64,000 nt of DNA from a virus. This document shows positions 27,479 through 27,554 of the stretch, one piece after another (within the stretch, counting starts at the first letter, position 1; each line of letters opens with the position of its first letter). The notes below the pieces were generated by a model. The model did not search any database. It was not told the origin of the DNA and saw only the letters and a list, made by a program, of their open reading frames with translations. Made by a program: the position numbers and the translations under genes. The stretch is from the IMG/VR virus record IMGVR_UViG_3300045988_081484; one strand, written 5' to 3'.

Positions 27479-27554
27479 TGCGGAGTAGCGTAATGGTTTA
27501 GCGCAGGGGTCTCTAAAACCTCGGGAGTGGGTTCGAATCCCACCTCCGCTGCCA
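27479..27554 (+). tRNA. Amber suppressor tRNA (anticodon CUA), Gln-like: G73, disrupted 1-72, resembles the local tRNA-Gln(UUG)
   Basis: Anticodon arm 'ggggt-CTCTAAA-acctc' with U33 and A37; T arm 'gtggg-ttcgaat-cccac'; 3' end 'ctccgct-G-CCA'. Confidence 0.8.

Follow-up and report, generated by a model that had tools for sequence, protein, structure and literature searches.

The tRNA gene at positions 27479-27554 on the + strand of the window, which is the whole 64-kb stretch of phage DNA analysed here, most probably encodes a functional amber suppressor that would be charged by GlnRS and would read UAG as glutamine in 11 phage genes; we put the probability of this reading at about 0.8. The assignment of glutamine rests on the comparison of codons with related phages, on the likeness of the acceptor stem to tRNA-Gln, and on the tendency of amber suppressors with U35 and G73 to be taken by GlnRS.

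A canonical cloverleaf with the anticodon CUA

ARAGORN calls a 76-nt tRNA with the anticodon CUA at 27479-27554 on the + strand, and RF00005 of Rfam matches positions 27479-27551 with 59.8 bits (E=2e-10), which is mid-range compared with the other tRNAs of the window. Both agree with the position and form, 73 nt plus an encoded CCA, given in an earlier note that was made from the sequence alone, and the loop CUCUAAA, the G73 and the unpaired 1-72 position described there are all present on a direct read of the sequence. From 5' to 3' the first half of the molecule is laid out as TGCGGAG TA GCGT AATGGTTTA GCGC A GGGGT CUCUAAA ACCTC and the second half as GGGA GTGGG TTCGAAT CCCAC CTCCGCT G CCA. 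The acceptor strands TGCGGAG and CTCCGCT leave a U1.U72 mismatch at the end of the stem and are followed by G73 and the encoded CCA, while two bases separate the acceptor and D stems. The anticodon loop CUCUAAA is carried on a 5-bp anticodon stem, the variable loop is 4 nt long and both the canonical G18G19 and the T-loop GTTCGAATC are present. The tRNA at 27479-27554 is real and folds as a canonical type-I cloverleaf.

The window contains 31 tRNA genes and a tmRNA in the ARAGORN calls, all on the + strand, and among these tRNA genes the suppressor is the only one with a CUA anticodon. It lies with the TAG-rich tail-fibre block (21559-26026) on one side and the genes at 28857-33230 on the other, so that the coordinates bear out its earlier placement between the tail-fibre block and a vault-like module. 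The features referred to most often below are the following.

19302-19453, + strand: the phage's sense tRNA-Gln(UUG) and tRNA-Gln(CUG) genes, both with A1-U72 and G73, used as comparators
21559-26026, + strand: tail-fibre block, made up of five ORFs that together carry 16 in-frame TAGs, with weak Mtd_N matches and with CAA/CAG opposite TAG in relatives
27479-27554, + strand: amber suppressor tRNA, anticodon CUA, type I (ARAGORN, Rfam and direct read of the sequence)
28857-33230, + strand: DUF2828/DUF7788 and major-vault-protein-like (MVP-like) genes, downstream of the suppressor

The label tRNA-Pyl that ARAGORN attaches to the gene is only a name for the anticodon CUA and was rejected, the cloverleaf being canonical. 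The architecture of tRNA-Pyl is atypical, with a long anticodon stem, short variable and D loops and no consensus at G18G19 or in the T-loop. The CUA anticodon is the sole feature that the two have in common; in contrast to tRNA-Pyl, the window tRNA has G18G19, the T-loop GTTCGAATC and a 5-bp anticodon stem. Of the ORFs of the window that were scanned with Pfam, none matched a PylRS-like gene.

TAG is a sense codon in the window

ORFs were built with TAA and TGA as the sole stop codons and kept if their coding score was positive; the resulting genes are all on the + strand. They contain 38 well-supported in-frame TAGs spread over 11 genes, with a few uncertain extra ones near 5' ends. The earlier estimate was some 45 in-frame TAGs, compared with the solid count of 38 plus these few. 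Apart from those in the tail-fibre block, the TAGs lie in the following genes.

46707-47168, + strand: 153-aa ORF with 1 in-frame TAG (46749); the same 153-aa gene is called in the relative L005
48747-49601, + strand: NAGPA (phosphodiester glycosidase) and SPOR protein, lysis-associated, with 2 in-frame TAGs, both spanned by the NAGPA match
49604-51013, + strand: lysin (Phage_lysozyme2 and Amidase_2, weak SLH; Pfam) with 9 in-frame TAGs
58248-59159, + strand: GIY-YIG endonuclease with 8 in-frame TAGs (Pfam; codons in relatives)
59436-60062, + strand: ThyX thymidylate synthase, its single in-frame TAG lying inside the Pfam Thy1 match (E=1e-49; also PDB alignments)
63092-64000, + strand: DnaB-like helicase, partial as it leaves the window, with 1 in-frame TAG (Pfam)

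Pfam domains run uninterrupted over these codons, Phage_lysozyme2 over six, NAGPA over two and Thy1 over one, in line with the earlier claim that TAG is translated. In the long ORFs between 10 and 31 kb there are eight internal TAGs and no internal TGA. These internal counts replaced the gain in ORF coverage per stop-codon reassignment, calculated on 13.5-kb loci, which was too noisy in such AT-rich DNA. The 37 gene models end with TAA (25) or TGA (12) and never with TAG, the 27 TAG-free genes among them giving an unbiased subset for stop-codon usage. Real genes of the window use TAG as a sense codon.

The codon is distributed unevenly. Tail fibres, NAGPA/SPOR, the lysin and the GIY-YIG endonuclease account for 35 of the 38 TAGs, and the gyrase, ligase, NAD-related and tRNA-related genes have none. 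The 27 genes without TAG include those for gyrase, ligase, RNase H, PhoH and NAD salvage as well as the Thg1-like, RNA ligase, MVP-like and DUF2828 genes. A UDG gene, which the earlier note had named, was not found in the window.

Conservation of the suppressor in related phages

Related loci were collected from IMG/VR through the neighbouring DUF2828/DUF7788 gene, which is carried by more than 180 IMG/VR contigs; the 80 loci retrieved, at 56-100% identity, contain 32 CUA tRNAs (26 distinct). When ten type-I members, the class to which the window tRNA belongs, are aligned, 15 of the 21 stem pairs show compensatory change, and 94.8% of the pairing cells are paired as against 71% after shuffling (a value that none of 500 shuffles reached) and 39-49% when the partners were slid. 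None of the ten has a pair at 1:72. The compensatory covariation points to purifying selection on the cloverleaf, and the suppressor gene is kept at the same position, together with its promoter, in relatives. The tRNA is conserved and under selection.

The presence of the tRNA also goes with the use of the codon. In 21-kb loci around the AAA gene, internal TAGs are more numerous where there is a CUA tRNA (Mann-Whitney p=0.004), and at least one internal TAG occurs in 23 of 24 loci with a CUA tRNA compared with 8 of 15 without, the loci being partial and mutually related. The earlier description of the gene as a dedicated amber suppressor is upheld.

If TAG were instead decoded by another suppressor or by host factors, the gene at 27479-27554 would be redundant or decaying. 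Such a situation might be envisaged since the window covers 64 kb of a genome of ~148 kb, some relatives have two CUA tRNAs, and two loci (L345 and L354) have many internal TAGs with no CUA tRNA within 21 kb. Suppressors were moreover detected in only ~40% of TAG-recoded phages (Borges et al, bioRxiv 10.1101/2021.08.26.457843). The strong covariation, the conserved position of gene and promoter, the link between CUA tRNAs and internal TAGs and the fact that this is the sole suppressor in the window all argue against it, however, and make it very improbable.

TAG takes the place of glutamine codons

The amino acid was assessed from the codons found opposite TAG in relatives. In lysin orthologs, compared at the DNA level, CAA or CAG stands opposite the window TAG at 6 of 9 sites. 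When all of the TAG genes are compared with diverged relatives, 36 of the 72 aligned sense codons are glutamine codons (CAA/CAG), the others encoding R, T, N, K, A, D, E and I; there is no Trp (TGG), Tyr, Ser or Leu codon among the 72. This 50% match of TAG to glutamine compares with a self-conservation of 57% for true glutamine codons. With empirical substitution profiles drawn from the same alignments, the log10 likelihood of the residue at TAG is -67 for Q, -99 for K, -103 for R and -165 for W, so that glutamine leads by ~32 log10 units over lysine and ~97 over tryptophan; these margins are inflated because the loci are phylogenetically non-independent, though the ranking is still clear.

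More distant proteins give the same picture. Among 150 lysin representatives of varied architectures, taken as 50%-identity clusters from a search with the ortholog P0001, glutamine occupies four of the TAG columns in 137 of 142, 138 of 145, 49 of 55 and 35 of 56 sequences. The 120 nearest lysin homologs also have Q at the TAG columns, but this was rejected as evidence on grounds of circularity, the gene callers having already written TAG as Q; the contigs of these homologs do not yield the database protein under table 11. DNA codons were used instead because some glutamine residues in the database came from code-15 gene callers.

Codon usage within the window suggests which glutamine codon has been replaced. 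The TAG genes contain 38 TAG, 85 CAA and 7 CAG codons and the TAG-free genes 158 CAA and 97 CAG, so that CAG is depleted in the TAG genes relative to elsewhere (p=5e-9), whereas the ratio (TAG+CAG)/CAA in the TAG genes equals the normal CAG/CAA ratio (p=0.58). The pattern is as if single C-to-T changes had turned CAG into TAG. TAG is the evolutionary equivalent of glutamine, replacing CAG specifically. The codons opposite TAG, the likelihoods, the conserved glutamine columns and the replacement of CAG together agree with the earlier suggestion that TAG is probably read as glutamine in a code-15-like manner.

Identity elements of the tRNA and the enzyme that charges it

When the anticodon is masked, the non-suppressor tRNAs that come closest are those for Ile (71% identity), Trp (68%) and Gln (67%). 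The overall resemblance to the phage's tRNA-Gln(UUG) claimed earlier therefore does not extend to the whole molecule, although it holds for the acceptor stem, where tRNA-Gln(UUG) is the closest (12 of 15 positions, compared with 6 of 15 for tRNA-Trp). In relatives some suppressors are identical to a tRNA-Gln(CUG) at 2-7:66-71 and differ only at position 1.

Identity elements were scored with the published bacterial sets (PMC9976931 Table 1). Of the glutamine set, the suppressor has G73, U1, G2-C71, G10, U35 and A37 and lacks A72, G3-C70, G36 and U38. Position 36 is A, which is unavoidable for reading amber, position 38 is also A, and 3:70 is C-G, as it is in the phage's own tRNA-Gln genes. For the U1-A72 element it has the U1 but a U72, leaving the unpaired U.U; an open 1:72 may take the place of this weak first pair, as the precedent of the amber tRNA-fMet suggests. 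Within the suppressor class G73 is invariant, and G10-C25 is invariant in 10 of 10. Of the tryptophan set, G73, U72, G2-C71, G4-C69, G5-C68, A9, C34 and A36 are present, and A1 (here U1), G3-C70 (here C-G) and C35 (here U35) are absent. The suppressor meets the glutamine and tryptophan sets about equally. The G73 that had been ascribed to it as a GlnRS identity feature stands, but G3-C70, G36 and U38 are missing, and glutamine identity is not readable from the tRNA alone because the tryptophan set is met about as well.

The behaviour of known amber suppressors is informative here. The determinants of GlnRS include 1-72, 3-70, U35 and the discriminator G73, and in E. coli the amber suppressors of tRNA-Trp and tRNA-fMet, the latter with an open C1.A72, are glutaminylated (PMC9976931). 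The E. coli suppressors supE (tRNA-Gln CUA) and su+7 (tRNA-Trp CUA) have CUA, U35 and G73 in common with the window tRNA, and both are charged by GlnRS, the Trp-derived one included (PMC9976931). As GlnRS takes tRNAs with CUA, U35 and G73 even when they are derived from tRNA-Trp, glutamine would be expected from either ancestry. In contrast to the window tRNA, which is a dedicated phage gene, supE and su+7 are single-mutation variants of host tRNAs with 1:72 paired; the window tRNA also differs from them in its C3-G70 and in serving programmed recoding.

No synthetase or release factor was found with Pfam among the ORFs of the window, which covers 64 kb of the ~148-kb genome. Charging of the suppressor would accordingly fall to host enzymes, although a synthetase, a release factor or a second suppressor might be encoded elsewhere in the genome. 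Relatives occur in MAG bins of Oscillospiraceae, Eubacterium and other Bacillota; those nearest to the window, with 80-81% identity and contigs of ~148 kb, fall into the Oscillospiraceae and Eubacterium bins. The phage is a gut phage of ~148 kb that probably infects Bacillota, and the signal for a Clostridia host is weak but consistent.

Three other ways of charging the tRNA were weighed against GlnRS. The anticodon arm, GGTCTCTAAAACC, is only one base away from the arm of the phage tRNA-Trp, GGTCTCCAAAACC, and together with the tryptophan elements listed above this could indicate a suppressor of tRNA-Trp origin that is charged by TrpRS, with TAG read as tryptophan. The determinant C35 is, however, replaced by U35, the acceptor stem is a poor match to tRNA-Trp, TGG is never aligned to TAG, the likelihood of tryptophan is ~97 log10 units worse than that of glutamine, the TAG columns are conserved glutamines in distant homologs and the tRNA-Trp amber suppressor of E. 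coli is itself glutaminylated (PMC9976931), so that this origin of the decoding is highly improbable. It is also quite unlikely that TAG is read as lysine, or as a mixture of glutamine and lysine through ambiguous charging. Several U35 amber suppressors do insert lysine in E. coli (PMC9976931), and lysine, which comes second to glutamine in likelihood, is often found at those TAG columns that vary, but LysRS requires A73 and the change from A73 to G73 moves suppressors towards glutamine (PMC9976931), all suppressors of the class have G73, and the invariant TAG columns are glutamine.

Glutamine might also be reached indirectly, by a non-discriminating GluRS followed by GatCAB, perhaps with the help of a YqeY/GatB-like protein of the phage. 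Many members of the Bacillota lack GlnRS, the relatives are binned with Bacillota, and the phage encodes a protein of this kind.

39452-39901, + strand: YqeY-domain protein

On the other hand, amidotransferases and GluRS2 rely on U1-A72, and the GluRS of B. subtilis on a modified U34 (PMC9976931). The suppressor has U1.U72 and C34, and the indirect route is unlikely for it as it has neither the U1-A72 pair nor U34.

The open 1:72 pair

In the window's phage family 11 of 19 suppressors are mismatched at 1:72 (U.U, C.U, U.C or A.C), every one of them with G73, and 8 of 19 are paired. The same mismatch is absent from the family's sense tRNAs for Gln (0 of 40) and Trp (0 of 21); it occurs in 9 of 49 initiator Met tRNAs, as expected, in 5 of 20 His tRNAs and in 0-7% of other elongators. 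Leaving initiator Met aside, mismatches at 1:72 are therefore frequent only in the suppressors and in His tRNAs, while Arg, Cys and Ile tRNAs show them sporadically.

A pattern scan of the whole IMG/VR collection gave 72 distinct CUA tRNAs, 70 with well-formed acceptor stems, of which 64 are paired at 1:72 and 6 are mismatched. Five of the six (U.U or C.U, with G73) belong to the window's phage family, and the sixth (L179), with U.C, U73 and odd arms, looks unrelated. This distribution argues that the open 1:72 is a selected trait of the lineage and no general property of phage suppressors: unlike most CUA tRNAs sampled in IMG/VR, the type-I suppressors of the window lineage combine a pyrimidine-pyrimidine 1:72 with G73. 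No description of an open 1:72 with G73 in such suppressors turned up in the literature searched. It is plausible that the open pair eases the opening of the acceptor end needed by GlnRS and in this way makes up for the loss of G36. That the open 1:72 and G73 are kept while other acceptor positions covary amounts to a natural experiment in the tuning of a tRNA to a host synthetase.

The window also encodes an enzyme that could act on this end of the molecule.

43466-44320, + strand: Thg1-like 3'-5' polymerase gene, TAG-free

The suppressor might be encoded in an unfinished form, from which the Thg1-like enzyme would remove the pyrimidine at position 1 and rebuild on the U72 template to give A1-U72 with G73; the repaired end would be like the acceptor end of all the phage sense tRNA-Gln genes. 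TAG decoding, and with it the timing of the tail fibres and lysis, would then depend on a phage protein. The idea must be regarded as a long shot, however, as the Thg1-like gene is found family-wide whatever the suppressor type, 8 of the 19 family suppressors already have a 1:72 pair, and repair of the U.C and C.C variants would yield G1-C72 rather than A1-U72. A specific link between the Thg1-like gene and mismatch-type suppressors was likewise rejected, the family-wide gene making the co-occurrence non-specific.

Expression of the suppressor

The region between the tail-fibre block and the vault-like genes contains the putative elements of a small transcription unit.

26033-26073, + strand: intrinsic-terminator-like hairpin with a 19-bp stem and a T run, closing the tail-fibre block
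27013-27041, + strand: perfect match to a sigma-70-type promoter (TTGACA-17-TATAAT, extended -10 TG), 466 nt 5' of the tRNA
27063-27389, + strand: small TAG-free ORF of 108 aa between promoter and tRNA, probably co-transcribed
27575-27889, + strand: small ORF with a good ribosome-binding site, 3' of the tRNA

Perfect promoter matches number 2 in the window compared with 0.1 expected; the coding strand has just that at 27013-27041, which is conserved in the relatives L007-L012. A promoter with 11 or more of the 12 positions matched occurs in the 500 nt before 44% of the family CUA tRNAs, as compared with 16% for other tRNAs and 7% for random positions, again in loci that are phylogenetically non-independent. 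The promoter is likely to drive a unit made up of the ORF at 27063-27389, which has no Pfam match, the tRNA and the ORF at 27575-27889, and the hairpin at 26033-26073 would separate the tail-fibre block from this unit. A promoter immediately 5' of the tRNA was rejected because TATATT (27474-27479), the sole -10 candidate there, overlaps tRNA position 1. A TAG-free unit behind such a promoter would fit transcription by the host polymerase independently of TAG decoding.

The mechanism that we envisage is accordingly as follows, with each step conditional on the assignments made above. Host RNA polymerase would transcribe the suppressor from the strong sigma-70-type promoter in its TAG-free unit, and a host synthetase, most likely GlnRS, would place glutamine on it, a step that U35, G73 and the conserved unpaired 1:72 would presumably favour. 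The charged suppressor would compete with release factor 1 for UAG and so permit translation of the 11 genes with their 38 TAGs, those for tail fibres, two lysis enzymes, the homing-type endonuclease and a few others, while the TAG-free genes for gyrase, ligase and the NAD-related and tRNA-related functions would be independent of it. As Borges et al propose, TAG may hold back the late and lytic proteins until the suppressor has accumulated.

Relation to known recoded phages

TAG-recoded gut phages are known among the crAss-like, Lak, Agate, Garnet, Amethyst, Topaz and other groups (bioRxiv 10.1101/2021.08.26.457843; PMC9523058). In these clades there are suppressor tRNAs, TAG enrichment is seen in genes for structure and lysis as well as in an intron homing endonuclease, the replication genes use the standard code and the phages rely on the host GlnRS; the only TAG reassignment seen in them is to glutamine (bioRxiv 10.1101/2021.08.26.457843). 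Glutamine at TAG has been confirmed in crAss-like phages by metaproteomics (Peters et al, PMC9523058). The window resembles these code-15 gut phages in its CUA tRNA, in having TAG in structural, lysis and homing-type endonuclease genes, in the probable reading of TAG as glutamine, in its standard-code replication genes, in that no phage synthetase was found and in its probable standard-code Firmicute host. Its own family, known here from sequence alone and with genomes of ~130-200 kb, ~31 tRNAs, a tmRNA and the MVP-like and DUF2828 genes, could be assigned to none of the named clades.

Megablast found nothing among GenBank phages that matches 26-34 kb, and the window is therefore without a close named relative. 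Among described phages, phAss-1 of the proposed 'Phassvirus' (PMC10607447) is similar in being a gut phage of 136 kb with many tRNAs and tRNA-SUP-CTA genes, in which TAG is read as glutamine in ~28% of ORFs; it encodes no synthetase dedicated to this, and its host is presumed to belong to the Clostridia. It differs in having two or three suppressor genes and in that its terminase, portal and tape measure genes are recoded.

The window tRNA adds a well-documented example to the already established recoding of stop codons in phages. Gene callers that use the standard code would fragment the tail-fibre and lysis genes, so that knowledge of the suppressor and of TAG as glutamine is needed for the correct annotation of a large and abundant phage family. 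The parts most worth following are the lineage-specific open 1:72 and the mixture of TAG and apparent TGA recoding among the relatives. The same family seems to hold both TAG-recoded and TGA-recoded members, and their occurrence side by side would make it a good system in which to study the origin of code changes.

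Probable TGA recoding and unusual tRNAs in related phages

The long open reading frames of the related loci L320-L332, L334-L336, L348 and L355 contain numerous internal in-frame TGA codons and few TAG codons, with internal TGA counts of 130 in L355, 24 in L348 and 6-14 in L320-L332. By comparison, 8 internal TAGs and no internal TGA are seen in the long open reading frames between 10 and 31 kb of the window. It would seem that the phage family of the window includes TGA-recoded members and possibly also members that are doubly recoded. No tRNA with a UCA anticodon was called by ARAGORN in these TGA-rich relatives. 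A conserved 74-nt tRNA with an 8-nt anticodon loop, GUUAAAAG, is found in the subgroup of relatives with internal TGAs. It is present in L320-L332 and L338, and also in L069, L073, L074, L081 and L083. ARAGORN gives its anticodon as 'taaa', or 'taga' in one variant.

Two further classes of CUA tRNA are seen amongst the relatives. Members of the second class, of 89-95 nt (L013, L021, L022/L060, L034, L059, L061, L081 and L085), have a Gln-like D-arm and acceptor, the latter being UGGGGA...UCCCCA-G in some, together with a long variable arm bearing a conserved YUGA(A/G) loop, an uncommon feature in a tRNA of Gln type. The third class, of 71 nt with the loop CUCUAAC, occurs in L018, L025 and L064.

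The tRNA array and tmRNA of the window

Besides the amber suppressor, the window encodes the following RNAs, among others:
10319-10392: second CAA 'tRNA', whose anticodon stem is poor and which lacks CCA
14017-14092: tRNA-His, with a U1.C72 mismatch, C73 and a G encoded at -1
16753-17068: phage-encoded tmRNA, flanked on both sides by genes of the tRNA array (Rfam score, 113 bits)
19623-19739: tRNA-like gene whose anticodon region carries an insert of ~42 nt (Rfam)
19930-20014: tRNA gene of 85 nt with the loop CUGUAAA (Rfam)
28307-28383: type-I tRNA of 77 nt, anticodon CAA, A73

The tag peptide of the tmRNA is DNDYFENYLAA. Neither the tRNA-like gene nor the 85-nt gene was picked up by ARAGORN in its standard mode. 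Assignment of the former as Lys(CUU), from the ARAGORN intron mode, is doubtful, while the latter is probably the tRNA-Tyr(GUA) that is otherwise missing from the window. The CAA tRNA at 28307-28383 does not have the long variable arm that would be expected in a bacterial tRNA-Leu; many relatives keep this tRNA beside the suppressor.

Proteins that may act on tRNA

33864-34628 and 44914-45477: two calcineurin-like phosphoesterases
35409-36233: RNase T-like exonuclease
37128-37856: RNA ligase
39452-39901: YqeY/GatB-C-terminal-like protein (Pfam PF09424, E=7e-8)
43466-44320: Thg1-like protein, of the tRNA-His guanylyltransferase family (Pfam, E=1e-28)
44384-44917: AAA_33/KTI12-like kinase

As the PF09424 domain family is linked to tRNA-Gln binding, the YqeY/GatB-like protein could conceivably assist in the charging of Gln-type tRNAs. 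The ligase, kinase, phosphoesterases and exonuclease make up an RNA-end-healing-type set, spanning 33864-37856 and 44384-45477, that recalls phage tRNA repair systems. The Thg1-like gene is family-wide, with 211 matches in IMG/VR.

Other genes of the window

21559-21816 and 21798-22391: tail-fibre ORFs A and B
28857-33230: DUF2828+DUF7788 protein (506 aa), then a vault-like protein (813 aa)
38104-42661: NAD-salvage cluster (isochorismatase/nicotinamidase-like protein, phosphoribosyltransferase-domain protein, NAPRTase and NAD synthase)

ORF B has no ATG and overlaps the 3′ end of ORF A in another frame, an arrangement that may reflect a frameshift or a non-ATG start. The 813-aa protein matches the major-vault-protein shoulder and repeat and Band_7/SPFH, and the DUF2828 gene is kept in >180 IMG/VR contigs and 28 MAG contigs. 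The NAD-salvage cluster is free of TAG throughout.
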